This document shows, piece after piece, positions 1,075 to 61,310 of a stretch of 64,000 nucleotides of DNA (the first letter of the stretch is position 1; every line of letters begins with the position of its first letter). The DNA comes from an uncultured Gammaproteobacteria bacterium (GTDB lineage: Bacteria; Patescibacteriota; Patescibacteriia; Magasanikbacterales; JBBTQS01). The position numbers and the translations under genes are program-made. The stretch spans positions 246,359-310,358 of the forward strand of contig OZ246400.1 of the NCBI GenBank assembly GCA_965230935.1. The letters are read 5' to 3'. The notes below the pieces were generated by a model. It worked only from the letters and a program-made list of their open reading frames with translations, was not told where the DNA came from and ran no database searches.

Positions 1075-1111
1075 GATTGGTGTATGAGAGAATCCTTGGA
1101 AGGGGGAAGTA

Positions 1112-1516
1112 ATGAAACAGCGTCAGGAAAACATCGACAGATTGCTCGCCCGAGTGGTGCATGGGATCTACCCGCACCTCCTCATTGTATGGGTCGAGCC
1201 GAGCGAGCTCCTGGCGCACTCTCGTGCCGGATCGTTTCGCCTAGAAAGCAAAGTGCCGCTGCAATATCGCGCACTGACCGACCGCCGTACGTACGCGCTG
1301 CATTTTGCTCGACACTACCAGGTATGTGAGCAAAACACATGGCGCCCGATCAAGCTCTTTGTGACGTGCGAGGCGCGGATCAAAGATGTGAGCGATGCGA
1401 TGGCCAAACATTTGTTGCACTTGGCACAAACGGCCGCACGCACACAGCCCCGGGGCCGCCTACTGCATTTGCACGATGCCGAGCGGCGCTTTCGTCGAAT
1501 GAACACCCAACACTAA
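1112..1516 (+). CDS. GC-rich orphan protein A (134 aa, unknown function)
   Basis: ORF with strong SD GGAAGGGGGAAG 4 nt upstream of ATG; high-GC codon usage (CTG/GCC/CGC) unlike flanking genes; own promoter and terminator. Confidence 0.7.
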   Translation: MKQRQENIDRLLARVVHGIYPHLLIVWVEPSELLAHSRAGSFRLESKVPLQYRALTDRRTYALHFARHYQVCEQNTWRPIKLFVTCEARIKDVSDAMAKHLLHLAQTAARTQPRGRLLHLHDAERRFRRMNTQH

Positions 1517-1533
1517 CCAACAGAAACAACGAA

Positions 1534-1558
1534 CATCTCAGCCTAGCTGAGATGTTTT
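1534..1558 (+). terminator. intrinsic terminator of cassette A
   Basis: 9-bp stem CATCTCAGC-cta-GCTGAGATG followed by TTTT. Confidence 0.75.
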
Positions 1559-1566
1559 CAATTATC

Positions 1567-1595
1567 TTGACAAATACTATTCTTTGACCTATACT
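1567..1595 (+). promoter_or_regulatory. sigma70-like promoter of cassette B
   Basis: TTGACA (1567-1572), 17-nt spacer, TATACT (1590-1595). Confidence 0.6.
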
Positions 1596-1602
1596 CATCT
1601 CT

Positions 1603-1651
1603 TATATGCAGTGACCAGGAGACGAACCATCGCCTCCTTCTACTGCATATA
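1603..1651 (+). promoter_or_regulatory. structured 5' leader of cassette B
   Basis: 10-bp stem TATATGCAGT...ACTGCATATA enclosing a nested AGGAG...CTCCT stem; a second small CCGC/GCGG stem lies before the SD. Confidence 0.5.
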
Positions 1652-1684
1652 GACCCGCACCGCGGGAAAGGAGCACATCGGCCT

Positions 1685-3109
1685 GTGGCTGATACTCAAC
1701 AGGGTCCCCGCGCTAACGCGCACAACCAGCAGGGCTTTACCCTGCTGCAGGCGATCGCCTATCTGATCGCTCCCGCAGGTGTACTCGCACTGGTGGCAGC
1801 AGGAACAGTGTGGATTGACCTGCCGTTTGTCAGCGAACGCTTCCAGTTCAGGAGCAAGTGGGAGAACTGGATGTTGTCTCAAGTGGTGTTCGGCATGACG
1901 ATGTTGGCGGGCTTTGCACGAGTGCGGCTCCGCCGATACTCAATGATCCACATGGCGATCCTCGGACTGATCATCGTTGTGGGCGTGCGCATCGGCATAA
2001 CCGACATCATGAAGTCCGCGTACTTCGCGCCGCTGGACAATCGTGTCGATTGGCACACCCAACACATCTTCCAGGAAGAAATCAAGGCGCGGTATAGCTT
2101 TGGTTCGGCTGAGCGATCAAAGAGGAACTACCCCCGCTTCACCGAGGAGGAGTGCACGTTCGAGCAGGCCAAGATCGATGACCCGCGGTATTACGAGAGC
2201 GCCTACCGCGAACTTGAGCAGGAGCGACAAGGATACGTGGGCGCAATCAAGGAGCTTCAGGAGGATGTGCAGCGTGGCAAACAGTTGCGCCTTCACCTAC
2301 GGTTGGAATCTTTAGTCTTCCCTACCGTTGCCATCGTTCGCTTGGATCCTAACGCCCGCGTGAGCGCGCGTTACCTGGACAATGGCGTGTGCAGACTCCG
2401 TACAGATCAAGAGGTTGATAAGGTGGGGTTCAGCATGAACCTTGACCCAAAGGACGGCTGGGGTTTTCTGCTTGTGCGTATCGTACGTGCGCTGAACAAC
2501 ACACAGAGTCGAACCGGGATCAGGTGTAACATCAACCAGCTACAAGACCCGATTCGAGAAGTTGGTTGTTTCACCGCAATGACTGAGTACCTTGTCTATG
2601 GTGTGCTCGCAAGAAGGATCCTTCCCTATACCGGCCGGGAATTCGGGAACATAAAAGACTCCCTCAACTGGGACTTCCTGATCCAGGCCTGGAAGGCTGC
2701 TGATGTGATCGCCCAGGATGAGGGGCTGCTATGGGCCGTCATGACAAGCTTTGTGCAGCACCAACTCCCTCGGCTTGATGACCTGGGTCAGGGTCGACTG
2801 GCAGGCTTGCTGTGGGTTCTCTGGCACAAGAGCCACCGAAACCTGGCTGCACTTGCCACAAACACGTTCCTTGAGGCTCGCATACCCACCTCGGTTGAGG
2901 CTTGGTTCATGCGCCGATGGGCCGATGCCGGTCGGCAGGCTCCTGGGATGCGGCAGCTCTGGATCTACCGCTACTGGTTGCTTCGGGCCGGCGAGACGTT
3001 CAAGGTTCCGCAAAAGCTGCTGACGCAGTGGAACCAGGAGCTCAAGCCGGCGATCGGAGGCGCGACCACGCTCAAGCTCAAGGGGCTCTACCTGAAGGAC
3101 CTCAAGTAG
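1685..3109 (+). CDS. GC-rich membrane-anchored protein B (474 aa); paralog of protein C
   Basis: GTG start preceded by AAGGAG with slightly long spacing, so start uncertain; 3 predicted N-terminal TM helices; C-terminal EAWFMRRWADAG...LWIYRYW...GGATTLKLKGLY block shared with ORF 3368-4678. Confidence 0.7.
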   Translation: MADTQQGPRANAHNQQGFTLLQAIAYLIAPAGVLALVAAGTVWIDLPFVSERFQFRSKWENWMLSQVVFGMTMLAGFARVRLRRYSMIHMAILGLIIVVGVRIGITDIMKSAYFAPLDNRVDWHTQHIFQEEIKARYSFGSAERSKRNYPRFTEEECTFEQAKIDDPRYYESAYRELEQERQGYVGAIKELQEDVQRGKQLRLHLRLESLVFPTVAIVRLDPNARVSARYLDNGVCRLRTDQEVDKVGFSMNLDPKDGWGFLLVRIVRALNNTQSRTGIRCNINQLQDPIREVGCFTAMTEYLVYGVLARRILPYTGREFGNIKDSLNWDFLIQAWKAADVIAQDEGLLWAVMTSFVQHQLPRLDDLGQGRLAGLLWVLWHKSHRNLAALATNTFLEARIPTSVEAWFMRRWADAGRQAPGMRQLWIYRYWLLRAGETFKVPQKLLTQWNQELKPAIGGATTLKLKGLYLKDLK

Positions 3110-3145
3110 CGCTCGGAGGCTCAACAACACACAAACAACTACACG

Positions 3146-3169
3146 ATCTAGGATTTCCACATCCTAGAT
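3146..3169 (+). terminator. terminator-like hairpin after cassette B
   Basis: perfect 9-bp inverted repeat ATCTAGGAT-ttccac-ATCCTAGAT; weak T tract. Confidence 0.45.
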
Positions 3170-3199
3170 TCTGTAATTTAGCTAATTTTAGACTCATAC

Positions 3200-3228
3200 T
3201 TGACAAATTCCTCTAATTTTGGTATTGT
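3200..3228 (+). promoter_or_regulatory. sigma70-like promoter of cassette C
   Basis: TTGACA (3200-3205), 17-nt spacer, TATTGT (3223-3228); leader of about 135 nt follows. Confidence 0.55.
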
Positions 3229-3367
3229 TAGTCGTCCAAACCTGGACTCAGGATGCGAGTGTAGCAGCTCGTTTCTGTGACAGTTTTGGAACCTGGGCAC
3301 AAGAAGTGTTCATTGTTTTCCATGAGGGAATTGACAATTAGCTCAGACAGCCACGAGGAGGCAACAC

Positions 3368-4678
3368 ATGAGCGATACGACGAGCGGGGATACCCCCGAG
3401 ATGGTTACCATCCCGTGCACCGAGTGCCGTGCGGACGTGAACATCAGCAAAGAGAGAGCAGCACTGGCCGGCATGATCGGTTGCACCGACTGCGGCAAGG
3501 AGTTCATGTACTCCGGGCCCAGCAGCGAAACCGAGGACTCGGGCCCGCTGGAGCTCCCAAGCCAGGCGAAGCGGCTCAACCCGTTCGTCATCATCGGCCT
3601 CTCGACCATCCTGCTGGTGTCTCTGCTCATCTGGCACCAGTCCACGTCGGGCGACGCCGATCAGGAGGCCGAGAGTACGGCCCCGAGCGCGGTGACGGAG
3701 GACACCCCTGCGGCGGCCGAAGAGGACGAGTCGAATACCTGCACCGACGAGGATGGGTGTGGGGGTGGGAAGCGCTGCTTGAACGGCAAGTGCCAGCTGA
3801 TGGTCAACCACGACTGGGAGTCGGTCAAGGCCATCAACGGCCAAATCGCCAACCCGGTTGCCACCGCGACAGCGTCGACGCCGGTCTTCCCCAAGGACAG
3901 CGAAGACGTTCCGGAGTTCGACGGTTCGGCGACCATGTTGTTGGCCGCGGCGCTCTCCAAGCTCAACCACGACGACATGTGGCCGTATTGGTTGCTCAAG
4001 TGGGGCACGTTCGAGAAGGCCGATGATGCCGATGAGGACGCAGATGGGGTTTACATCTCCCTCGTCGATTCGGTTCTCACCGTCAAGTGGCTTCCGGAGA
4101 TGAGCAGTCCGTCGTGGAAGGGGCCGAGCGACACGCCCGAGTTCACCTACGGCGATCACCTGGTCATCGCGCTTCGGAAGATCGCCGAGGACGAGGAGCA
4201 GTTGGCCGCGCTCATGCCGTGGGCGCTGGGCTACGCCAAGGTTCACCTGCGGCCGCAGTTCTACCCCATGTACCAGGAGTGGCTGCGTCGGCTCTGGCAA
4301 GCGTCCAACACCAACCTCGCCCTGGTCAAGCATCAGGTGCAGAACGGCATCGGCGACCCGGAGGATGACGAGTACACCCGTCCGGGCGACGTGCTGTACG
4401 ACAACGACCTGAAGTTGGAGGGGTGGTTCATGCGCCGCTGGAGCAACGCCGGGGGCGGCAAGGCAGGGAGCGATCGGATCCTGCTGTACCGCTACTGGAT
4501 CGTCAAGGTCATGCAGATGCTCGAGGGCGGCTGCAGTCCGGCCGGGGACACACCCGCGTGTTCCGAGGAGTTGCTGGGATGGGCCAGCGCCGTTCAAGGT
4601 TCGTTCCAGAACGGTGAGGGCGCCACCCTGAAGCACAAGGGGACCTACTTCAGCCAGATCGACACGTTCTGGCCCTGA
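3368..4678 (+). CDS. GC-rich protein C (436 aa): N-terminal Cys4 zinc ribbon, single TM, acidic linker, C-terminal domain paralogous to protein B
   Basis: SD GAGGAGG 6 nt upstream of ATG; CTEC...CTDCG zinc-ribbon-like motif then TM helix FVIIGLSTILLVSLLIW; C-terminal EGWFMRRWSNAG...LLYRYW...GEGATLKHKGTY. Confidence 0.75.
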   Translation: MSDTTSGDTPEMVTIPCTECRADVNISKERAALAGMIGCTDCGKEFMYSGPSSETEDSGPLELPSQAKRLNPFVIIGLSTILLVSLLIWHQSTSGDADQEAESTAPSAVTEDTPAAAEEDESNTCTDEDGCGGGKRCLNGKCQLMVNHDWESVKAINGQIANPVATATASTPVFPKDSEDVPEFDGSATMLLAAALSKLNHDDMWPYWLLKWGTFEKADDADEDADGVYISLVDSVLTVKWLPEMSSPSWKGPSDTPEFTYGDHLVIALRKIAEDEEQLAALMPWALGYAKVHLRPQFYPMYQEWLRRLWQASNTNLALVKHQVQNGIGDPEDDEYTRPGDVLYDNDLKLEGWFMRRWSNAGGGKAGSDRILLYRYWIVKVMQMLEGGCSPAGDTPACSEELLGWASAVQGSFQNGEGATLKHKGTYFSQIDTFWP

Positions 4679-4730
4679 GGTCGGCTCCGACGGCTCCTGA
4701 GCACACACCACAACACAACAACTACTTGCA

Positions 4731-4759
4731 GGCCCGCAGCGCGTACAGCGATGCGGGCC
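4731..4759 (+). terminator. intrinsic terminator of cassette C
   Basis: 8-bp stem GGCCCGCA-N13-TGCGGGCC followed by a T-rich tract. Confidence 0.65.
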
Positions 4760-4794
4760 TCAGTAATTTTAGCTAGTAATCGCCTACCATTCTT

Positions 4795-5487
4795 CTACTC
4801 CAACTTATGCTTTTTTTGCACAATTGATTTGGCAGCCTGATAATCCTGAACTTTTTTACTCCAAGGAAACATCTTATACCAAAACTCTGGAAGCCAACTA
4901 CTCATTGTTCCGGAAGAAATAATCTGAAAAAGAATTTCTGGGACCATCACACCATATTTGCTTTGCTCTGCCATACTAAGCCACACATCCCAATCTTGAA
5001 ATCGCTTCAATTCCGGATCAAATCCACAAAAATCTTTTGCACGAATTAACGCACTGGTGTGAATGTAATTGTTCTGTTTTAACTTTTCTAGATCAAATGG
5101 TTGCGGTGAAAATGTTTTCCATCCAAGTTTGAACCCACCATAGCTATACGACGCTTTTGGATTAGCCACCAAAGCAGTATGGAGTTTTTCAAACATTCTA
5201 GAGTTAAGGACAAGGTCAGCATCACAAAACAATACATACTCCCCTGTTGTCCTACTAAATGCAACATTGCGTGCTGTTGGTGCACCTTGATTCTCTTGCG
5301 TAATATAGTGAGTAGCAGCAAAGTCCTGCGCGACTGATTTGATATCTTCAGTGCTTCCATCATTCACAACAATCACCTCAATCGGCTGGTATGTCTGTGC
5401 ACATATAGACTCAAGTGTTCGACGGAGTGCACCCGACCGATTAAATACCGGCACAACAACGCTAATGAGATTAGGAATCATACTCAA
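4795..5487 (-). CDS. family 2 glycosyltransferase
   Basis: VVVPVFNRSG...VIVVNDGSTED GT2 signature; DAD motif. Confidence 0.8.
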   Translation of the reverse strand: MSMIPNLISVVVPVFNRSGALRRTLESICAQTYQPIEVIVVNDGSTEDIKSVAQDFAATHYITQENQGAPTARNVAFSRTTGEYVLFCDADLVLNSRMFEKLHTALVANPKASYSYGGFKLGWKTFSPQPFDLEKLKQNNYIHTSALIRAKDFCGFDPELKRFQDWDVWLSMAEQSKYGVMVPEILFQIISSGTMSSWLPEFWYKMFPWSKKVQDYQAAKSIVQKKHKLE

Positions 5488-6625
5488 ATATCTGTGTTTT
5501 TTCCTGTTCCCAATTCTGCCATGAAAATTCTTGTGTATACCGTGCCTTTGCTTGAGCTCCCATCTGCTCTCGAGTTGATTGATCCCCGATTAAGTAAATC
5601 ATTGCGTGCGCAAGTGATGGTATGTCCCCTGCAGGAACTACCACACCAGTTTTTCCTTGCAAAACTGCTTCTGGTGCTCCACCGGCATCACTTGCAATAC
5701 TTGACTTGCCATATGATGCAGCCTCAATATAGCTCATACCAAACCCTTCGACATCAGTTCCTGATTGCTGGGTAGGCATAATATATACATCAGCAATTTG
5801 ATACCAAACTGCTTTTTCACTAGCTGAAACAGCACCAATGAACCGTACATTATTTTGTAATTGGTATTGTTGCATCAAAGCCTGTAAGCGTGCAGATTCT
5901 GGCCCTTCTCCAATGACCGCATAGGCAACATTAGGGTGAGTCTTAACCACTTGTGCAAGCGCGATAAGCGTCTGATCAATCCCCTTTCGCGCAACCAATC
6001 GTGCGACAGTAATCATGAGTATTTTCCCTTCAAGTGCATACTGCGAACGCAATGACTCTTGTGCTGCCAAATGAGACTCCTGCGGTGCATCGACATGGGG
6101 ATACCACAACATAATATCTTGTCGATTTGGCACGATTTGCTGAACTTGTGCAGCAGTAAACTTACTATTTGCAACAAGTGTTTTGGCGTTACGTAAAATG
6201 TTTATAAGACGTTTTTTCGCAAATCGTTTTTTCTTAGCCAACAAAATATCCATTCCATGAAAATAAATCCGATACGGAGTACCTAGCTTCTTTTGAATCC
6301 AATAGCAAATAGTCCCAATAGGAAGCACATGCGAGCAATGAATCTCATCAAATTGATATTGTTTTTGTAAACGCCATACGCGGATAAAGAGAAAAAACCA
6401 TCGTGGCCAAAGCCACCGACTAAAAAATCTGGTGTAGAGCATGGTGGGTGGATGCTCATTAACTTTCCAAATGTCTTGCGCACTTTTGTCGCTTTTCTTA
6501 AGATTCTGATCAAGTAAAATCGTAAGCTTGTCAGATGGATATCGACGGTACAGCCCAGAAAGATATTGGGCAACTCCTCCAAGACGTGGAGGAAAGTCAT
6601 GAGTAATTAATAGAATATTCTTCAT
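5471..6625 (-). CDS. family 4 (GT1-type) glycosyltransferase
   Basis: 384 aa; C-terminal EGFGMSYIEAASYGKSSIASDAGG retaining-GT motif. Confidence 0.8.
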   Translation of the reverse strand: MKNILLITHDFPPRLGGVAQYLSGLYRRYPSDKLTILLDQNLKKSDKSAQDIWKVNEHPPTMLYTRFFSRWLWPRWFFLFIRVWRLQKQYQFDEIHCSHVLPIGTICYWIQKKLGTPYRIYFHGMDILLAKKKRFAKKRLINILRNAKTLVANSKFTAAQVQQIVPNRQDIMLWYPHVDAPQESHLAAQESLRSQYALEGKILMITVARLVARKGIDQTLIALAQVVKTHPNVAYAVIGEGPESARLQALMQQYQLQNNVRFIGAVSASEKAVWYQIADVYIMPTQQSGTDVEGFGMSYIEAASYGKSSIASDAGGAPEAVLQGKTGVVVPAGDIPSLAHAMIYLIGDQSTREQMGAQAKARYTQEFSWQNWEQEKTQIFEYDS

Positions 6626-8052
6626 ATGGATGAACGTCGAAACAAATGAGTAAGCTCCTGTGTTGTAGTAACTCGCAAAAAGAGTGCGGCACTAATATAT
6701 ACTACAGAACCAATTAAAATCTCGATCACAAGCGGCACTCGCTGTTGGACAGCAAAAACCACTATTACCATAATAGCGGTTGCCCCAATAATCCGAAAGG
6801 TTTGTGAAAATAATTGTTTCCACGGGATAACAATAATCTTACGGATCATCACTAATCCTACGCCAAACAACAGCGCAAAGCCAAAGGTTGCTGCACCTGC
6901 TGCAGCCAATGCTCCATATTTGGGAATGAGTGCAATGTTAAGCCCAGCGTTTACCACCATAACCAAACCCATAATTGCGGTTTGTACATGTTGTTTGTTG
7001 CATGCATTGAGCACGGAACCCACTGGAAAACTTGCAAAAGAAAAAATAATGCTGAGTATTAATACTTGCAATGGCACTACTGATGCATGATATTGCGCAC
7101 CATAAAAAACAGAGATGATGTCGCTGCTGGTCACTAAAATACCCAATGAGATTGGAAATGCAATGAGCAGAAGGTATCGTGTTGAGTTCACAAATAGTGA
7201 AGCGAGTTTTGCTTTGTTACTTACAAAATACTCACTCATCTTTGGATATACTGACGCAATTAGCGCCATAGGGATAAACTGAAATGCAAATGCGATTTTA
7301 AACGGTACACTATAAATCCCTGCTTCATGTTCACCCACCAGTCGCTCAAGGAGAACACTATCAAATGATGAAGACACTCGGGCAAACACTCCAGCCAATG
7401 CAAATGGAATTGCCATAATAATAATCTTTTTCACTAAGGAGCCGTCCCACGTAAATGAGAACCGAATATCATGTTTTCGTGACAGCATGGTGGCAATATA
7501 TACCACGTTAATTGCACTTGAAATTGCAAATACCCAAATTAATGAAACAAGTGGCAATCCAAAATGAACAGCATACAGTCCTAAAATCATGGTTAATACT
7601 TGACTCCCAAACATACCAATAGCTTCCCAGCGCACATCGTGGAGCGAACGAAATACGGCATAATAGGACAAGTGGATTGAATCTAAAATCATGACAATAC
7701 CTGCTACCAAGATCAACTCACGGAGTTCGGCAGAATACCCGAGCAATATAGTCGTTCCCCAAATTATTCCATAGGCCAAAATTCCGGTAAGAACTTTGGT
7801 ACTCATGATAGTACGTAAATACACACTCGCCTGACTTGATCGCTTTGCTACTTCTCGAGTAAGTACTGGCGACATACCCACGTCGATTAAGATTGAAAAC
7901 ATGGTAGTAAATGACAGTGCAACAAAGTATTTACCGATCTGTGAAACATCAAGCAAGTTTGCCAAAAGCGTAAAATACAAAAAAGAAACGACTTTCTGTC
8001 CTACAGATGCCGTTGTCATAAACGCCGTATTTTTGGCAATCGAGCGAGCCAT
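6622..8052 (-). CDS. polysaccharide biosynthesis protein / Wzx-like flippase (MOP superfamily)
   Basis: about 12 TM helices; start placed at MARSIAKNTAF (the ORF-track start at 8199 runs into the next cassette). Confidence 0.7.
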   Translation of the reverse strand: MARSIAKNTAFMTTASVGQKVVSFLYFTLLANLLDVSQIGKYFVALSFTTMFSILIDVGMSPVLTREVAKRSSQASVYLRTIMSTKVLTGILAYGIIWGTTILLGYSAELRELILVAGIVMILDSIHLSYYAVFRSLHDVRWEAIGMFGSQVLTMILGLYAVHFGLPLVSLIWVFAISSAINVVYIATMLSRKHDIRFSFTWDGSLVKKIIIMAIPFALAGVFARVSSSFDSVLLERLVGEHEAGIYSVPFKIAFAFQFIPMALIASVYPKMSEYFVSNKAKLASLFVNSTRYLLLIAFPISLGILVTSSDIISVFYGAQYHASVVPLQVLILSIIFSFASFPVGSVLNACNKQHVQTAIMGLVMVVNAGLNIALIPKYGALAAAGAATFGFALLFGVGLVMIRKIIVIPWKQLFSQTFRIIGATAIMVIVVFAVQQRVPLVIEILIGSVVYISAALFLRVTTTQELTHLFRRSSI

Positions 8053-8164
8053 AGCAATACTCTTATTGTACGAAAATGAATAAGAAATAGCAATAAAAAG
8101 CAAAATCGTCCAGAGTTCTCTGCACGAAGACGCGTTGTGTATTTTGCTGTGACCCGTGGGCTGC

Positions 8165-8596
8165 TCATGGCGCAGCGACAGCTGTTGTGTGAACCTCAAG
8201 ACTCCAGCTCCGCCAGCTCAAGCCAAGACTTGTCAACGTCTCGACCTCCGAGGGTAGATACTGGAACCACTGACACTTCCGGTCGCACTTGACCACACTC
8301 AACAATAGCTGGTATCCACGAACTGTGGCACGCATGTCGCTCATGAGCGGCACGCGAACCCCGAAGTCCGCCTGACACCCGGCCAACGCAGGCAGGCCGG
8401 CATGACCTTCATCGACCAGCATCATGTCGTCGTCCCCCACAACGCCGGCGCCAAAGAGGGCGACGACGAGACTCCATGCTTGCGATCGATCGATCCCGCT
8501 CCCAAAGACTACTCCCCACTTTCCGGCGTGGCGAGATTGGTGCACAAAGGCGCCTTGGGTCATGTCCCCAACAGCGGCCTCTCCTCGTTGCGGCAT
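8165..8596 (-). CDS. GC-rich orphan protein D (143 aa, unknown function)
   Basis: ATG preceded by AGGAGG (8603-8608 on minus strand); GC-rich codons; sits between Wzx gene and the S9 operon terminator. Confidence 0.65.
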   Translation of the reverse strand: MPQRGEAAVGDMTQGAFVHQSRHAGKWGVVFGSGIDRSQAWSLVVALFGAGVVGDDDMMLVDEGHAGLPALAGCQADFGVRVPLMSDMRATVRGYQLLLSVVKCDRKCQWFQYLPSEVETLTSLGLSWRSWSLEVHTTAVAAP

Positions 8597-8633
8597 ACAT
8601 ACCTCCTACCGCGGTTGTTGAACATATATTCAG

Positions 8634-8662
8634 CATACTCAGATTACTACACCTTTGTCAAC
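8634..8662 (-). promoter_or_regulatory. promoter of cassette D
   Basis: TTGACA at 8662-8657 on the minus strand, immediately after the S9 terminator; -10 hexamer ambiguous (GAGTAT / TATGCT). Confidence 0.45.
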
Positions 8663-8685
8663 AAAAAGGCCGCCTATCGGCGGCC
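8663..8685 (-). terminator. intrinsic terminator of the ribosomal protein operon (after rpsI)
   Basis: GGCCGCC-gata-GGCGGCC hairpin followed by TTTTT on the minus strand. Confidence 0.75.
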
Positions 8686-8710
8686 ATACTATGATTGACT
8701 GAGATGTGCT

Positions 8711-9154
8711 TTAACGTTTACTCCATTGATGTGCACGACGTGCTTTGTGTCGTCCAGGCTTCTTACGTTCTTTAACTCGTGCATCACGAGAAAGAAGTCC
8801 AAGTGATTTAAGCGACTTACGAAGCTCGGCATCAAGGGCTACCAATGCACGTGCAATACCAAGTTGCACCGCTTCCGATTGACCGCGCTTTCCTCCACCG
8901 ACTACTTTAACGGTTACATCAACACCGTCCTCTCGACCGACCGCTTTCAGCGGTGCCATAATAGTCTCTTGCATAGCGACTGTTGGAAAGTATGCTTTCC
9001 AATCTTGATCATTAATGGTAAGTGCTCCTTTTCCAGCAGGAAATAGTCGGATGCGTGCTGATGCACTTTTTCGACGCCCTACTGCTGGGATATAGTCACC
9101 ATTTTTCTCAGGGGCAGCCGTTGTCTTTGTTTCTGAAACGGAAATATTTTCCAT
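8711..9154 (-). CDS. rpsI: 30S ribosomal protein S9
   Basis: C-terminal GGGKRGQSEA...KARRAHQWSKR. Confidence 0.95.
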   Translation of the reverse strand: MENISVSETKTTAAPEKNGDYIPAVGRRKSASARIRLFPAGKGALTINDQDWKAYFPTVAMQETIMAPLKAVGREDGVDVTVKVVGGGKRGQSEAVQLGIARALVALDAELRKSLKSLGLLSRDARVKERKKPGRHKARRAHQWSKR

Positions 9155-31793: not shown

Positions 31794-31839
31794 AGACACA
31801 CGTTTTTTGACATTCTCACCTTTTGTCCCGGGAGGACCC

Positions 31840-32130
31840 ATGAACCAGAACTCGAACCCCATCACCTTCGCCGACTTCTTCAGTGCCTTCGCGCTCCTGC
31901 TGCTCGCGGTGCTCGTCGTCACGATCCCGGTGTGGGCCCCGAGCCTCTTCGACGAGGCGGCCTTCCCGGTCAACCTGAGCCAGTTCGCTCAGGCCACGAT
32001 CATCGGGTGCCTCTTCGGCGCCGGCCTGGCCACGCTGATGGTCCGCGCGATGTGCGCGACCACCCACCTGGCGCCGGCCTACGCCACGGAGTGCGACGAC
32101 GACTACGTCGACCTCGACTTCGACGGCTGA
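31840..32130 (+). CDS. GC-rich small membrane protein E (96 aa)
   Basis: SD GGGAGGA 3 nt upstream of ATG; two predicted TM segments; acidic C-terminus ECDDDYVDLDFDG; the ORF-track start at 31765 would begin inside the promoter. Confidence 0.65.
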   Translation: MNQNSNPITFADFFSAFALLLLAVLVVTIPVWAPSLFDEAAFPVNLSQFAQATIIGCLFGAGLATLMVRAMCATTHLAPAYATECDDDYVDLDFDG

Positions 32131-32172
32131 TCACCACACAGCGCGGGCAGCGCTAAACCCACCTGCCCACCG

Positions 32173-32214
32173 AAAGCCCCGACGCGGATTTCTAACACGC
32201 GACGGGGCTTTTCG
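32173..32214 (+). terminator. intrinsic terminator of cassette E
   Basis: AAAGCCCCGACGCG...CGCGACGGGGCTTT stem followed by TTTCG. Confidence 0.65.
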
Positions 32215-32239
32215 AATACAAAAATTGTGAGGTGATTAT

Positions 32240-32590
32240 TTATTCTTGCACAAACTCTTTTTGTGCACGAATCGCATTACGATCCTTGTGCTTCTGCTTG
32301 CCTTTCAATTTTTCAAGTTCAATTTTAAGGTGGTCTTTTACTTTATCAATTGCCTTGTACAGATCCTCTGCATCTTTGGTCACACGAATGGTGTGAAGTT
32401 TTGGTACATGCAGATTTACTTCAGCATAAAAAATCTTACCTTTATTATGATGGTGGGTGCGCATTCCGATATCAATCTCTACTTTGACAATATGATCATG
32501 GAATTTACTTAGTGATTCAATTTTATCAGTTGCATATTGTTTAAGCGCTTCTGTCAAATCAATCCCGGTTCCTTGAATAGTTATGGTCAT
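32240..32590 (-). CDS. hpf: ribosome hibernation promoting factor
   Basis: start placed at MTITIQGTGIDLTEALKQYATDKI (S30AE/RaiA family). Confidence 0.85.
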   Translation of the reverse strand: MTITIQGTGIDLTEALKQYATDKIESLSKFHDHIVKVEIDIGMRTHHHNKGKIFYAEVNLHVPKLHTIRVTKDAEDLYKAIDKVKDHLKIELEKLKGKQKHKDRNAIRAQKEFVQE

Positions 32591-34998: not shown

Positions 34999-35027
34999 TT
35001 GCTGTCGATATGAAAAAATGGTATCAT
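34999..35027 (+). promoter_or_regulatory. promoter-like element upstream of GC-rich mini-ORF
   Basis: TTGCTG-17 nt-TATCAT ending 28 nt before the ATG. Confidence 0.4.
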
Positions 35028-35055
35028 AATGGCACAACCTCTCCTGGAGTACACC

Positions 35056-35184
35056 ATGCTCGACAACCATGAGCCCCAGCGGGCTGTTGAGCGTGGATCA
35101 GGTCTGCCGTTCGTGGCCACTCTCTTTTTGACTCTGACCCTCCTGCTCGGTGCACTCCTGAATCTGGCCTCGTACCTTGGCTGA
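35056..35184 (+). CDS. GC-rich mini-ORF (42 aa, single TM)
   Basis: hand-translated MLDNHEPQRAVERGSGLPFVATLFLTLTLLLGALLNLASYLG; GC-rich codons; below the ORF-track cut-off. Confidence 0.45.
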   Translation: MLDNHEPQRAVERGSGLPFVATLFLTLTLLLGALLNLASYLG

Positions 35185-35227
35185 CCTTCTCTCCCCGCCG
35201 GCCGCCTGCTCCAAGGACCCCCACGTT

Positions 35228-35252
35228 CCCGCGATTTCGAACGATCTCGCGG
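35228..35252 (+). terminator. hairpin after mini-ORF
   Basis: CCCGCGA-N11-TCGCGGG inverted repeat; no clear T tract. Confidence 0.35.
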
Positions 35253-35413
35253 GTCCGACTCTCTTAAGTCCAATTTTCATGATTTTTATCTCACTTGAAC
35301 ATCAATAAGAGGACTTGTAAGGCCGATATTGTGCCCGAGATCTTAGGGCGCGGTACTGGCCTTTTTCATTTATGTAAATTCTGATAAAGTTTGGTTACCT
35401 AATTGACATTGCT

Positions 35414-41581: not shown

Positions 41582-41618
41582 AGGTAAAAAGAAAATTATT
41601 ATAAGAGAAGAATAGTAG

Positions 41619-41690
41619 TACCGCCAAGGGGAATCGAACCCCTGTTCCCAGGATGAGAACCTGATGTCCTAACCACTAGACGATGGCGGC
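41619..41690 (-). tRNA. tRNA-Glu (anticodon CUC)
   Basis: hand-folded cloverleaf: acceptor GCCGCCA/TGGCGGT (G1-U72), D-arm GTCT-AGTGGTTA-GGAC, anticodon stem TCAGG/CCTGG with loop TTCTCAT, T-arm AGGGG-TTCGATT-CCCCT; CCA not encoded. Confidence 0.75.
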
Positions 41691-46394: not shown

Positions 46395-46452
46395 GATGTA
46401 GTATTTTGTTGACGTCTAACTTCCGCTGAGGCGCGTCGCGATCCCCTTCTTC

Positions 46453-47667
46453 CTAAGCAGACGGGCGTTTCAGCCAGGTCCAAGGAACGGTAAATCGGCG
46501 ACTCTCACGCCAGATATACCCTTCCTCTTGTGCTCGGGAGATATATGCACGAATCGAATCAGTTGAAATTCCACCACCAAATGATTCTGGGGTCAGATGA
46601 TGATGATAGAAGTCACGGCCGCCGGTGGAATCCCAAAGATGAACCAGTCGGTCAGACCAAGGCATCTCGAGCCGGGTTACCTGTGGTGGAGATGGGGCCT
46701 TCAACCAGTAGCACGCATTCGGATGGTTCTCAGCGCACCGGATGTACCCTTCCTTGCGTGCACGGCCCAGGTACGATTTAAGAGTGCCTTTAGAAACGCC
46801 ACCACCGAACGATTCGGCGCTGATCTCATCTCGAGAAAAGTCACTTCCACCGGTAGACTTCCAAAAGTAAAAAAGCCGCAATTCCCAAGGAATTTTTTGC
46901 TTATTCACTCTACTGCGATGTCGATTTGGTTCTTCACCACGCACACTACTATCAGCAGTTGCACCAACGTTCGTAGGCCTAGATGAAGGTTTCTGACCGT
47001 ACGGGTGTTCGCCTATCAAGGCAAAACCAGAGACCGAGATGCTATACCAATCACCCTCAAGACAAGCGCCGGTCAAGCGGTCTTCGTCGCAGCGAGACAA
47101 CAACATGTGATCCAACAGCATATCCATTACATCACCGATCTGCTCAAAGCCCAGTTTACCGAGCTTATCATCAGTAGCGGTTCTACGAATTGCCTGCCGA
47201 ACCAAGTCTTCCGGGAACGTCGGAATCTCGTTTAGATGGTATCCTGTCTGCTCGAAGATGTGGTGCAACACACGACGTAGTGCTTCATCAATCTGCAGCG
47301 AAGTACTCACATCGCCATCATAGCAAACACCAGGACGGTACGGTTCCCCTTCCCGGAACCACCCAACGTGACTCCTCCCGATCATGTCAAAAGCCGATGC
47401 CGTCATCTGAAGACGACGGTTCCTTCTTCCCTTGTACCCCACACTACCACGTGTGAGCAAGAAACGCTCTTCCATCACCGCAACCAACTGGGCACGACTC
47501 TTCACACCTAACTGTCTTTGCAGTTGTGTAGGCAGCGCTTCGCGAATCCATTTCTTAAGCTGCGCTTGTGTGAATGTGCGACGAACGCCTCTCCGGTATC
47601 CTGTTTTGCGAAAAAGCGCTTTGACCACTTCACGAAGAAGGTCGTACTGCGCCTGATTTCTCTGCAT
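46453..47667 (-). CDS. GC-rich protein F (about 405 aa) with internal tandem roughly 65-aa repeat
   Basis: start placed at MQRNQAQ (ATG 47665-47667) because of the strong SD AGGGGGGAG; repeats WELRLFYFWKSTGGSDF...ESFGGGVS...EGYI and WSDRLVHLWDSTGGRDF...ESFGGGIS...EGYI. Confidence 0.7.
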   Translation of the reverse strand: MQRNQAQYDLLREVVKALFRKTGYRRGVRRTFTQAQLKKWIREALPTQLQRQLGVKSRAQLVAVMEERFLLTRGSVGYKGRRNRRLQMTASAFDMIGRSHVGWFREGEPYRPGVCYDGDVSTSLQIDEALRRVLHHIFEQTGYHLNEIPTFPEDLVRQAIRRTATDDKLGKLGFEQIGDVMDMLLDHMLLSRCDEDRLTGACLEGDWYSISVSGFALIGEHPYGQKPSSRPTNVGATADSSVRGEEPNRHRSRVNKQKIPWELRLFYFWKSTGGSDFSRDEISAESFGGGVSKGTLKSYLGRARKEGYIRCAENHPNACYWLKAPSPPQVTRLEMPWSDRLVHLWDSTGGRDFYHHHLTPESFGGGISTDSIRAYISRAQEEGYIWRESRRFTVPWTWLKRPSA

Positions 47668-53285: not shown

Positions 53286-53343
53286 ACCTTTCCATTGAAG
53301 GAAACAACACCAACCTCTAGTAGCGAAAGCTAAGGAGTCTGAC

Positions 53344-54021
53344 GTGCACACCAATCCGATCCTAACCGCTGCCTTGCTGATCGTGGCATTGACGTTGGCC
53401 GGGTGCGGCGGCCCGGAGCAGCTCGTCAACACCGGGCAGACGCATTTGATCCGCACCGGGACGGAGGACGCCGAACATCATCCCGCCTGCATCGACCTGC
53501 CGTTGCAAGTCAAGCAGGGTGAGCACATCACGCTGAAGCACGTCCCCGAGACGTCACAACAGCACGCGGTGTGCTATGTCGGCGATTGGGATGAGTTGTT
53601 TGGACGAAGCACCAGTGTGCTGATTAATCCTGCGCGGTATTGGCCGACCATCATTGACCTGAACCTGTGGTGGGACAAGGTGATGAAGGGTCAGAGCAAG
53701 CCGCAGCAGGGCTCTACCGAGAACCTCACCTACTGGTACGTCTTCGACAAGGGAGCCGTGTACAACGGCAGCATTCTCACGATCTGTACCAAGGACGTTC
53801 GAGAAAACCTCAAAAAAGGCGGCCACGCGTCGGTAGGATGGGGAGTCCAAATGACAACTGGAATGTCGGAGTTTTTCCTGCATGTTGTGAAGACGCTCAT
53901 CGAAAGTGGAACACTCGGATCTGATGCCACCATCGACCCGCTGATGCCGATCCCAGCGGCACTGGATGGCCTTGGTAAGGATCCGCGATTCTGCTCGCAG
54001 GTCTTGATCAAGCACAACTAA
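53344..54021 (+). CDS. GC-rich predicted lipoprotein G (225 aa, unknown function)
   Basis: GTG start after SD AAGGAG; signal peptide with lipobox LTLAGC; GC-rich codons. Confidence 0.7.
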   Translation: MHTNPILTAALLIVALTLAGCGGPEQLVNTGQTHLIRTGTEDAEHHPACIDLPLQVKQGEHITLKHVPETSQQHAVCYVGDWDELFGRSTSVLINPARYWPTIIDLNLWWDKVMKGQSKPQQGSTENLTYWYVFDKGAVYNGSILTICTKDVRENLKKGGHASVGWGVQMTTGMSEFFLHVVKTLIESGTLGSDATIDPLMPIPAALDGLGKDPRFCSQVLIKHN

Positions 54022-54037
54022 CAACTTACAACCACAA

Positions 54038-54071
54038 CGACCTGCACGTAATGCGGGTCGTTTGTATTTTT
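54038..54071 (+). terminator. intrinsic terminator of cassette G
   Basis: CGACCTGC-acgtaat-GCGGGTCG stem (one G-U pair) followed by TTTGTATTTTT. Confidence 0.65.
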
Positions 54072-57810: not shown

Positions 57811-58410
57811 ATGCCCACCTTTGAGGACTTGAAGCGCTGTCTTGTAATGGGAATGCGCGAGATTAAGCGACGTCATGAAGACGAGATGTATGAGCTGAGT
57901 GAGAAGCTGAACGACTTTTTGTACAGCATCCACGTCGCTCAATGGCAAAAGCATGATGACGCCGCCCCACTTCCCGAGGACTTCATCACCAAGACGCCCC
58001 CCGGAACACAGCTCACCTCCAAGGCGAGTGGCGTGTTTACCCGGATGCGGGCGTTTTTGGCGGAAAAAGACCTGGTGGCTGTCTACGACATCTATGTGAC
58101 ACCGGACAGTGACGGTGGCGCCACCTACACGCTCACGCGCAACGGCTCGCGACTCGAGCAAAAAAGGATCGCTGAGCTGGGCGACCCGGCGATCTTCAGT
58201 GAGATTGCCCTGGTCTGGCTGCCAAGGCAAAAACTCCACTCGAAAATCGGGCTTGACCTTGAGATCAAGGCGATCCGCGAAACCGCCATTGCGCAAGGCA
58301 TCTCGCCGGATGATACGGAGGCGTTCCAGGAGGCCACCGGCAAACACCTCGCTCTGGCAGCGGTAGGCCACCTGCTCAGAAGTGGAAAACTGCGAGACTC
58401 ATCGGACTAA
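57811..58410 (+). CDS. GC-rich orphan protein H (199 aa, unknown function)
   Basis: SD GGAGGG 3 nt upstream of ATG; GC-rich; own terminator. Confidence 0.7.
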   Translation: MPTFEDLKRCLVMGMREIKRRHEDEMYELSEKLNDFLYSIHVAQWQKHDDAAPLPEDFITKTPPGTQLTSKASGVFTRMRAFLAEKDLVAVYDIYVTPDSDGGATYTLTRNGSRLEQKRIAELGDPAIFSEIALVWLPRQKLHSKIGLDLEIKAIRETAIAQGISPDDTEAFQEATGKHLALAAVGHLLRSGKLRDSSD

Positions 58411-58426
58411 CAACTCACACAACAAC

Positions 58427-58463
58427 AAACCCACCAAGCGAACGCGAGGTGGGTTTGGGATTT
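58427..58463. terminator. hairpin terminator after cassette H (possibly bidirectional)
   Basis: 9-bp stem AAACCCACC-N12-GGTGGGTTT followed by GGGATTTT; the convergent minus-strand gene ends about 25 nt downstream. Confidence 0.7.
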
Positions 58464-60352: not shown

Positions 60353-60373
60353 TTACGCCACGTTCTTTGATTT

Positions 60374-60389
60374 TTGGCCCTCTAGGGCC
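60374..60389 (+). promoter_or_regulatory. perfect palindrome in the cassette I leader (candidate operator or RNA hairpin)
   Basis: TGGCCCT-ct-AGGGCCA between the promoter and the SD. Confidence 0.45.
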
Positions 60390-60413
60390 ACCACTTTTTG
60401 CCTTGGAGGCGCT

Positions 60414-61214
60414 ATGAAGCACCCGAGACAGTTGAGCAGGTTCGCTCTTTGGCTGAACATTGCCAGGCAGGCGTACCAGCGTTGGAATCACCGCCGTGCG
60501 GTGGTTCCAGCCCAGATGGGCTACCCGGACTCGTACCAGGAGCCCAAGGCCATCGAGGATCAGCTCCACATCCTGCGCCAGTACTTCCCCGAGCTGGGCG
60601 TTGCCCGGTTGGCGGACGCGCGCCAGGTGCTCCCTGAGGGCGCCGAGGGGTGGTTTGCCATCCCGAAGTGGCAGGCGCTGGGCGACACCTACTGTGAGGC
60701 GTTGCACCGCGTGTTTGCGGCGCTGCGCCAGAGCCGCTATGTGGAGGATCTGCTCAACCAGTTTGGGCCGGTCACGGATCTGCAGCTGCAGACCACCGAG
60801 CACACCCGCGACGCGATGAACTACATCGCCGCGGAGCAGGACCGCCGGACGTTCGAGGGGAACATCCTCATGATCCCCTGCCAGTTCGGCGCGAACCACG
60901 CGGGCGAGTCGGATCTTCGCGTGCGCGCCACGTTGCGCCACGACGAGTTCGCGCTCTCCACCTTCGCGGTGGCGTGCATGGTGTTGACCCACCCGGATCG
61001 GTTTGTCAGCGATGGCACCCTGGGTGTGCACTGCACCGGTGACGGCTTCAGCCAGATCACGCAGGACCACCGCGAGTTCCACGGCTTCTGCGACACGCCC
61101 TGCTTCTTCTTCGACCGCGGGAGCGACGGGCACGACAAGCTGTGGCTCAGCAGCGACCTGGTGCGGATCCCGCGATACCACACCGGGGCGGCCACCGGGT
61201 TCATAGTCGAGTAA
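60414..61214 (+). CDS. GC-rich orphan protein I (266 aa, unknown function)
   Basis: SD GGAGG 5 nt upstream of ATG; Cys/His-rich C-terminal half (HCTGDGF...HGFCDTPCFFFD). Confidence 0.7.
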   Translation: MKHPRQLSRFALWLNIARQAYQRWNHRRAVVPAQMGYPDSYQEPKAIEDQLHILRQYFPELGVARLADARQVLPEGAEGWFAIPKWQALGDTYCEALHRVFAALRQSRYVEDLLNQFGPVTDLQLQTTEHTRDAMNYIAAEQDRRTFEGNILMIPCQFGANHAGESDLRVRATLRHDEFALSTFAVACMVLTHPDRFVSDGTLGVHCTGDGFSQITQDHREFHGFCDTPCFFFDRGSDGHDKLWLSSDLVRIPRYHTGAATGFIVE

Positions 61215-61271
61215 CGCGTCGAGGCGCGGCCGACAACCCACCAGACATAAACCAATTCAAACAACCACTTC

Positions 61272-61310
61272 CCCGCCAAGGCGCACGCTGAGGCGGGTTA
61301 GTGTTTTTTC
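61272..61310 (+). terminator. hairpin after cassette I
   Basis: CCCGCC-N15-GGCGGG followed by TTAGTGTTTTTTC. Confidence 0.45.

Follow-up and report, generated by a model that had tools for sequence, protein, structure and literature searches.

We studied a single-gene islet rich in guanine and cytosine (GC) in a stretch of 64,000 nucleotides of contig OZ246400.1 (GenBank assembly GCA_965230935.1), which comes from an uncultured bacterium placed in the Magasanikbacterales; this whole stretch is called the window below. The islet lies between two minus-strand genes, rpsI, which encodes ribosomal protein S9, and wzx, which encodes a Wzx-type flippase, and it contains one open reading frame (ORF) of 143 codons, which we named orfD. 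We propose, at a probability of roughly 0.6, that orfD truly codes for a protein and came from a foreign source, i.e., that it is a moron-like single-gene islet inserted at a hot-spot junction. The inserted unit would consist of a promoter, a ribosome-binding site, the ORF, and a weak terminator, and it would have landed between the rpsI terminator and the intact wzx promoter.

Signals and coding character of orfD

The window has a GC content of ~43%, and its minus strand carries most of the genes. An earlier note on this DNA had described an S9 terminator, a TTGACA box, an AGGAGG motif, and a GC-rich 143-aa ORF at this place; all were present on the minus strand, and the translation matched. 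rpsI is the last gene of the ribosomal block infA-rpmJ-rpsM-rpsK-rpsD-rpoA-rplQ-rplM-rpsI, and the Pfam model Ribosomal_S9 matched the gene identical to it in the loci that we labelled L001/L002. The stem of its intrinsic terminator (GGCCGCC-GATA-GGCGGCC, 8685-8668) folded with z = -3.5, and 0 of 200 shuffles were equally stable. One base past this terminator begins the TTGACA (8661-8656) of a sigma-70-like site that agrees with the consensus at 10 of 12 positions and whose TATGCT ends at 8632. This site is embedded in AT-rich, host-like sequence, and the 1-kb region contained three promoter-like sites where 0.6 were expected. Transcription would begin at TTGACA-18-TATGCT just past the rpsI terminator, and translation at ATG 8596 behind the AGGAGG. 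The start codon stands at the ideal spacing from this perfect Shine-Dalgarno motif, exactly at the edge of the islet, and the islet and orfD are nearly coextensive. Downstream of orfD, AGCAAAAT and ATTTTGCT can pair in an AT-rich hairpin with a fold of -18.4 kcal/mol (z = -0.7), no better than that of shuffles. The hairpin is a weak candidate for a terminator, and because it is weak, some read-through into wzx may be possible.

The end of orfD had been thought to run up to wzx, which proved incorrect, as a 112-nt spacer separates the two genes once the wzx start is set at ATG 8052. By contrast, the long N-terminal extension of the wzx ORF had rightly been called an artefact. In the ORF track, wzx covers 6622-8199 (525 aa, with a TTG start at 8199). 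The Pfam domain Polysacc_synt (1.1e-28) starts only at residue 55 of this long ORF, and the homologues and the independent gene calls (476 aa) begin with M-A-R-S-I-A-K, which is equivalent to ATG 8052. Judged from these alignments, ATG 8052 is the true wzx start, and the 525-aa ORF is an artefact: its added codons run through GC-rich DNA in which stops are scarce. The extension overlaps the last 35 nt of orfD in a different frame. We also considered orfD as the N-terminal part of Wzx and rejected it, because the extension lies outside the domain model and is not found in the homologues, and because the frame of orfD differs.

We then assessed whether orfD behaves as a coding sequence. The GC content at codon positions 1, 2, and 3 was 0.67, 0.49, and 0.66, respectively, and position 1 was richer in G than in C (0.43 vs 0.24), which is the asymmetry expected of a sense strand. 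Of 2000 shuffles, only 18 matched the base-by-position periodicity, and shuffling the islet produced an ORF of 143 codons or more in 3% of cases. The antisense frame in register with orfD was rejected: its GC periodicity is the same, but stop codons interrupt the frame and its G1/C3 asymmetry is wrong. Pfam returned nothing for five alternative six-frame translations of the islet or for shorter ORFs. The same arrangement was found in the Logan assembly of run ERR2281801, with 100% identity over 8.6 kb, and in the ENA assembly of ERR2281805, with two mismatches in 4.25 kb, both in rpoA; orfD itself did not vary between the assemblies from these two other runs. The exact orfD protein is also present in an NCBI record, on a 931-kb contig. 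We therefore regard the locus as real and orfD as, with good probability, a real gene.

The predicted product has a mass of 15.4 kDa and an isoelectric point (pI) of 5.7, with no signal peptide and no convincing transmembrane segment. V, G, A, and L are abundant in it and K, N, and I are nearly absent, a make-up typical of a GC-rich source. These predictions suggest that it is probably a small acidic, soluble, cytoplasmic alpha/beta protein. The earlier note had recognized no motif in it, and the searches agreed. orfD had no match in Pfam, PHROGs, PADLOC, or NCBIfam (E <= 0.1-1 for the defence and toxin-antitoxin check), and PDB sequences gave no match either for orfD alone or for a profile built from orfD and orfE, a candidate relative described below. 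orfD was its own only hit, both when 5.8 billion proteins were searched through a word index and when HMMER was run in full over 1.84 billion cluster representatives. Searches of plasmids and phages by blastn and tblastn were empty, and scans of viral and metagenome contigs with the pattern of the orfD-orfE alignment revealed no relative. The orfD family is new only in the trivial sense of an orphan; the kind of element to which it belongs is already known.

Foreign composition and a recurrent insertion site

The composition of orfD differs from that of the host genes. Its synonymous codon usage did not correlate with that of the host genes (r = -0.01), whereas it correlated with that of the other GC islands of the window (r = 0.51). 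The codon log-likelihood ratio per codon was +0.18 for orfD vs -0.53 to -0.71 for the host genes, and the GC content at the third codon position (GC3) was 0.66 vs about 0.34. A similar contrast was seen in the translation signals. GGAG or GAGG stood upstream of only 2 of the 32 host genes in the window, ribosomal-protein genes included, compared with 6-7 of the 8 GC-island ORFs (Fisher p = 2e-4). In the relatives L023 and L026, the ribosomal genes also lacked Shine-Dalgarno sites; orfE has one. The anti-Shine-Dalgarno motif is missing from the 16S ribosomal RNA (rRNA) in about half of Parcubacteria (PMC9297842), and the scarcity of Shine-Dalgarno sites in the host and its relatives fits this reported loss; the 16S rRNA gene is not within the 64-kb window. 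Because genes of the host clade lack Shine-Dalgarno sites, we read the site of orfD, its GC-rich codons, and its make-up poor in K, N, and I as signatures of a donor. That is, the sequence of orfD fits an origin in a donor whose genes use Shine-Dalgarno sites. For the same reason, the AGGAGG alone is no evidence that orfD is expressed in this host.

We compared the rpsI-wzx junction in roughly 23 related lineages. The window organism is an ultra-small member of the Patescibacteria near Magasanikbacteria, the name borne by its closest S9 and Wzx relatives, and wzx lay just downstream of rpsI in every related lineage in which both genes were found. The idea that the gap is normally empty was borne out. 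In about a dozen lineages the junction was short (22-255 bp), AT-rich, and empty, holding only a terminator and a -10 element near the wzx ATG. The Wzx protein of the window shares 64%, 64%, and 54% identity with those of the three nearest lineages, and the gap was empty in two of these three (129 bp in L023-25 and 105 bp in L029). Across seven proteins, the window organism and the L023 and L026 lineages were about equidistant (66-68% identity), and the third nearest lineage was the outgroup (58%). In the window, orfD is flanked by an intact rpsI terminator upstream and by the retained -10 element TACAAT of wzx downstream; we conclude that the unit was inserted between these native signals. 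When the junctions were compared by eye, TACAAT also closely preceded the wzx ATG in L026 and L029. It lies ~6-12 nt from the ATG (window 8052-8075; L026 6630-6653; L029 ~2400-2420), and such a short distance would leave a very short or absent leader, consistent with initiation independent of Shine-Dalgarno sites in this clade.

About ten other lineages carried inserts of 0.36-2.6 kb at the same junction. These inserts were mutually unrelated and, with one or two exceptions, GC-richer than their own genome, and several of their ORFs bore Shine-Dalgarno-like sites. The rpsI-wzx junction is thus a recurrent insertion hot spot across Magasanikbacteria-like lineages. The earlier note had found the position between a ribosomal operon and a glycan export gene odd for a housekeeping gene. 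orfD is indeed an orphan and most likely a non-housekeeping gene, but its position is less odd than supposed, since so many lineages carry unrelated inserts there.

We next compared orfD with known systems. Like a phage moron, orfD is one ORF with a putative sigma-70-like promoter, a candidate ribosome-binding site, and a weak terminator-like hairpin, it lies between two transcription units whose signals stay intact, and it has a composition sharply unlike its surroundings and is absent from the same junction in relatives. Unlike a moron, it lies outside a prophage, flanked by ribosomal-protein and glycan genes, it has no PHROG match, and neither viral contigs nor phage genomes contained a relative. 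It shares with the ORFan (orphan ORF) islets of Patescibacteria (PMC12455944) the atypical GC content and codon usage, the restriction to a lineage, the lack of annotation, and the location in a variable region beside cell-surface glycan genes. However, it is very small for such an islet (0.5 kb, one gene), has no integrase, transfer RNA (tRNA), or repeat borders, has no traceable donor, and bears a Shine-Dalgarno site in a clade lacking them. The earlier note had called orfD a cassette. An integron gene cassette is also a discrete insertable unit with a single ORF; in contrast to a cassette, orfD has its own promoter-like site, no array, and no adjacent integrase, and neither an attC-like imperfect inverted repeat nor a GTTRRRY core was found at its 3' end. 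An insertion sequence or a miniature inverted-repeat transposable element (MITE) was rejected, as a repeat search over 8000-8760 revealed no terminal inverted repeats or target-site duplication. The islet has no other copy in the window and shares no repeats with the other islands. That is, orfD shows the composition and the presence/absence pattern of a horizontally acquired islet, but not the mobility genes or the donor.

A candidate relative and the rival explanations

A sister lineage carries an ORFan, orfE, in its 991-bp rpsI-wzx gap, with promoter-like sites of its own, a perfect GAGGAGG, and a clear GC-rich terminator. The GC content of orfE is 48.5% in a genome of 41% GC, and its predicted product (pI 4.9) is acidic, as is that of orfD. 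orfE is likewise an orphan among the 5.8 billion proteins. Between orfD and orfE, BLASTP gave E = 0.01 over 41 residues, and the alignment was collinear over the whole length with 24% identity. The semi-global score corresponded to z = 4.35 and was reached by 1 of 1000 shuffles, and orfE ranked first of 385 control ORFs of similar size (score 76 vs 61 for the runner-up). A predicted N-terminal strand and helix fell in aligned columns in two low-confidence models, and a search with the profile of both proteins yielded no third member. On these alignments we consider homology of orfD and orfE likely, and orfD may then belong to a tiny, very fast-evolving family of which orfE is the only other candidate member. 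Upstream, the two regions compared by eye share CTTTTTNTTGACA, GGTGTRGTA, and TTCAACAA ahead of the Shine-Dalgarno site.

If the homology is real, horizontal circulation of a small family into the junction fits better than vertical descent, which would hardly explain why the composition of orfD is unameliorated and why both genes bear perfect Shine-Dalgarno sites although their clade makes no use of such sites. Such a family could have spread, for example, by recombination through the conserved flanks of the junction. The earlier note had named a homolog of host-like composition at the same junction in related genomes as the observation that would speak against a foreign orfD. orfE touches on this point but does not supply the observation, because its similarity to orfD is unproven and neither gene matches the composition of its host. 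The gap that contains orfE also holds a dispersed repeat of ~100 bp (5942-6038), which recurs inverted with 80% identity between genes at 1558-1655 of the same contig.

Several points weigh against orfD as an imported gene. The similarity to orfE is marginal, and the alignments of the upstream DNA were no better than those of shuffles (73 of 1000 and 709 of 2000) and were not used as evidence. A homolog of orfD was absent from every library searched, and no donor was found. The AlphaFold predictions reached a predicted local distance difference test (pLDDT) score of 35.6 for orfD alone, which lacked a deep alignment, and of 41.5 for orfE together with orfD; both runs were low-confidence, the models were unusable, and they give no support for a folded protein. 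The length of orfD alone is weak evidence for a gene (p ~0.03), and its GC3 is not above the GC content of the first codon position, an unusual pattern for a gene native to a GC-rich donor. The AGGAGG would be useless for expression if the ribosome of the host had no anti-Shine-Dalgarno sequence. Finally, no mobility genes, tRNA, terminal inverted repeats, or target-site duplication were found at the islet borders; the only tRNA in the window lies at 41618-41690.

Some of these points are shared by the explanation that the islet is a decaying, functionless GC-rich import, in which the ORF survives because GC-rich DNA has few stops and in which the promoter and the Shine-Dalgarno site are fortuitous or relics of the donor. 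The frequency of equally long ORFs in shuffles, the lack of a homolog or a confident fold, and the GC3 that is not raised over GC1 would all be compatible with such decay, and the AGGAGG may be inert where host genes do without Shine-Dalgarno sites. However, the frame-specific periodicity and the G1 enrichment on the orfD strand speak against decay, and the ORF covers the whole islet at the optimal distance from a perfect AGGAGG. Moreover, a collinear ORFan of similar size stands at the same site in a sister lineage, and the streamlined genomes of the candidate phyla radiation (CPR) would be unlikely to keep 0.5 kb of junk for long. We judge this explanation, the main rival, unlikely.

Vertical inheritance is, in our estimation, more doubtful still. 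Here orfD would be an old orthologue of orfE that predates the split of the three nearest lineages and was lost in the L023 lineage. The two genes share junction, orientation, acidity, autonomous signals, and similar size, their proteins resemble each other (z ~ 4.4, rank 1 of 385), and with three lineages about equidistant, one gain and one loss are parsimonious. Nevertheless, the GC3 and codon usage of orfD should have drifted towards those of the host while the ribosomal proteins diverged to 66% identity, and a perfect Shine-Dalgarno site that is not under selection would not persist in a clade that does not use it. The window holds seven further GC-rich islets with ORFans, which point to ongoing import, and the similarity of orfD and orfE is, as stated, unproven.

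Structured RNAs are known to show up as GC-rich islands between the genes of AT-rich genomes. The islet, which is GC-rich in AT-richer surroundings and lies directly upstream of wzx, could accordingly be imagined as a structured non-coding RNA or a regulatory leader of wzx in which the ORF is incidental. This is very improbable, as Rfam gave 0 matches at E <= 1, folding was ordinary on both strands (z = -0.70 and -0.62), the 3-base periodicity is clear, and wzx has its own promoter-like site downstream of the islet. An assembly chimera or a contaminant joined into the contig, which an abrupt change of composition in a metagenome-derived genome might suggest, is scarcely credible, given that host sequence lies on both sides of the islet, that two different runs assembled by different assemblers gave the identical arrangement, and that functional signals mark both borders of the islet, namely the rpsI terminator and the orfD promoter-like site upstream and the wzx promoter downstream.

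For orfD as a gene of foreign origin, the most likely role, guessed from the context, is an accessory and dispensable one, for example in adaptation to a niche or in conflict with phages or hosts. That orfD is dispensable follows from its absence in relatives. A housekeeping role or a role as an enzyme of a glycan pathway is most likely not the case. Nothing ties orfD to glycan export, as it has signals of its own and, in the orfE lineage, a strong terminator separates orfE from wzx.

Other GC-rich islands and the wider pattern

The coordinates of the features discussed here and of the ORFs in the other islands are listed in Table 1. Besides the orfD islet, the window contains at least five further GC-rich islands with seven ORFs (1101-4800, 31801-32240, 53301-54060, 57901-58460, and 60361-61300; 54-67% GC vs 43%), and GC-rich stretches also occur at 35021-35300 and 46401-46840. 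All seven of these ORFs lie on the plus strand, opposite most host genes, and none had a Pfam or PHROG match. The island genes I and A2 had no relatives in viral contigs or plasmids.

Table 1. Features at the rpsI-wzx junction of the window and of related lineages, and ORFs in the other GC-rich islands of the window.
Feature	Position	Strand	Basis or remark
rpsI (ribosomal protein S9)	8711..9154	-	ORF and translation; upstream border of junction
rpsI intrinsic terminator, GGCCGCC-GATA-GGCGGCC then TTTTT	8663..8685	-	terminator scan
Sigma-70-like promoter of orfD (putative): TTGACA, 18 nt, TATGCT	8632..8661	-	promoter scan, consensus match only
Shine-Dalgarno AGGAGG, 5 nt before ATG 8596	8602..8607	-	sequence
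orfD, 143-aa ORFan, ATG 8596, TGA 8167-8165, 60% GC	8165..8596	-	ORF and translation
GC-rich islet, 58% GC vs ~43% background	8101..8640	.	composition profiles
Weak terminator-like hairpin 3' of orfD: AGCAAAAT ... ATTTTGCT, inner stem, then TTTTT	8094..8148	-	inverted repeat
Native wzx promoter-like site: TTGCTA, 17 nt, TACAAT	8065..8093	-	promoter scan
wzx-type flippase (Polysacc_synt), 476 aa	6622..8052	-	downstream border of junction
Artefactual N-terminal extension of wzx ORF track, 49 codons	8053..8199	-	reaches into GC-rich islet
orfE (P0122), 131-aa ORFan	L026:6167-6562		same orientation as orfD; lineage L026-L028, GCA_964554065.1
Junction insert, 2.6 kb, 55% GC	L038		
Junction ORFs of 75-353 aa	L017, L039, L042, L043, L044, L045		
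Junction insert with two minus-strand ORFs	L004		
ORF-less junction insert, about 360 bp	L040 3638-3994 / L041 2004-2360		inverted GCTCTCCCCCTATCAGGGGGAG copies, MITE-like
ORF-less junction insert, about 360 bp	L008 5073-5449 / L048 3627-3988		GC-enriched, several hairpins
Island ORF	1112-1516	+	GC-rich island
Island ORF	1685-3109	+	GC-rich island
Island ORF	3368-4678	+	GC-rich island
Island ORF, two transmembrane segments, GC3 0.97	31840-32130	+	GC-rich island
Island ORF, lipoprotein with LAGC lipobox	53344-54021	+	GC-rich island
Island ORF	57811-58410	+	GC-rich island
Island ORF, GC3 0.89	60414-61214	+	GC-rich island

The ORF-less insert in L008 and L048 had no Rfam match.

The stop codons of the island ORFs A1, A2, H, and I are followed by a C/A-rich tract (CAACAACACACAAACAAC-like, with at least 0.9 C+A over 22 nt; 3110-3135, 4695-4725, 58411-58437, and 61230-61260) and next by a hairpin. 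The tract was weaker (0.82) after the island ORFs A0, F, and G. After the stop of orfD it reached 0.77, which is within the host background, and we do not claim the tract for orfD. It could be a shared 3' element of imported units. The ORFs at 1685-3109 and 3368-4678 of the 3.8-kb island are paralogues (local alignment z = 7.3) with a shared EAWFMRRW...YRYW motif. This island is placed between fmt and a GT2 gene. The corresponding fmt-GT2 gap in the relative L024 is only ~360 bp long and contains a 79-aa ORF with a CxxC motif, which is faintly like the N-terminus of the 3368-4678 protein (z = 2.7).

On a wider reading, orfD would be one of at least eight units in the window that are GC-rich, bear Shine-Dalgarno sites, and consist of a single ORFan, and these units might form one class of moron-like mobile cassettes, a generalization that we hold to be distinctly speculative and rather improbable. 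Under it, units would be imported repeatedly from a GC-rich pool that uses Shine-Dalgarno sites (for example, the bacterial host of the episymbiont or another element) and would insert into permissive intergenic spots downstream of terminators. Their translation would follow another route than that of the host genes, and orfD and orfE would represent two alleles of a single cassette family whose members target the rpsI-wzx junction or enter it by recombination.

Taken alone, orfD as a real, foreign, non-housekeeping gene is one more orphan gene of the CPR. The wider pattern of GC-rich ORFan units with Shine-Dalgarno sites in a CPR genome poor in such sites is more worthwhile than orfD itself. 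If the contrast is genome-wide, recent imports into CPR bacteria without the anti-Shine-Dalgarno sequence would be easy to recognize by a Shine-Dalgarno site together with their GC content. If it holds, it would also raise the question of how, or whether, such imports are translated and from which donors they come, possibly the hosts of the episymbionts.

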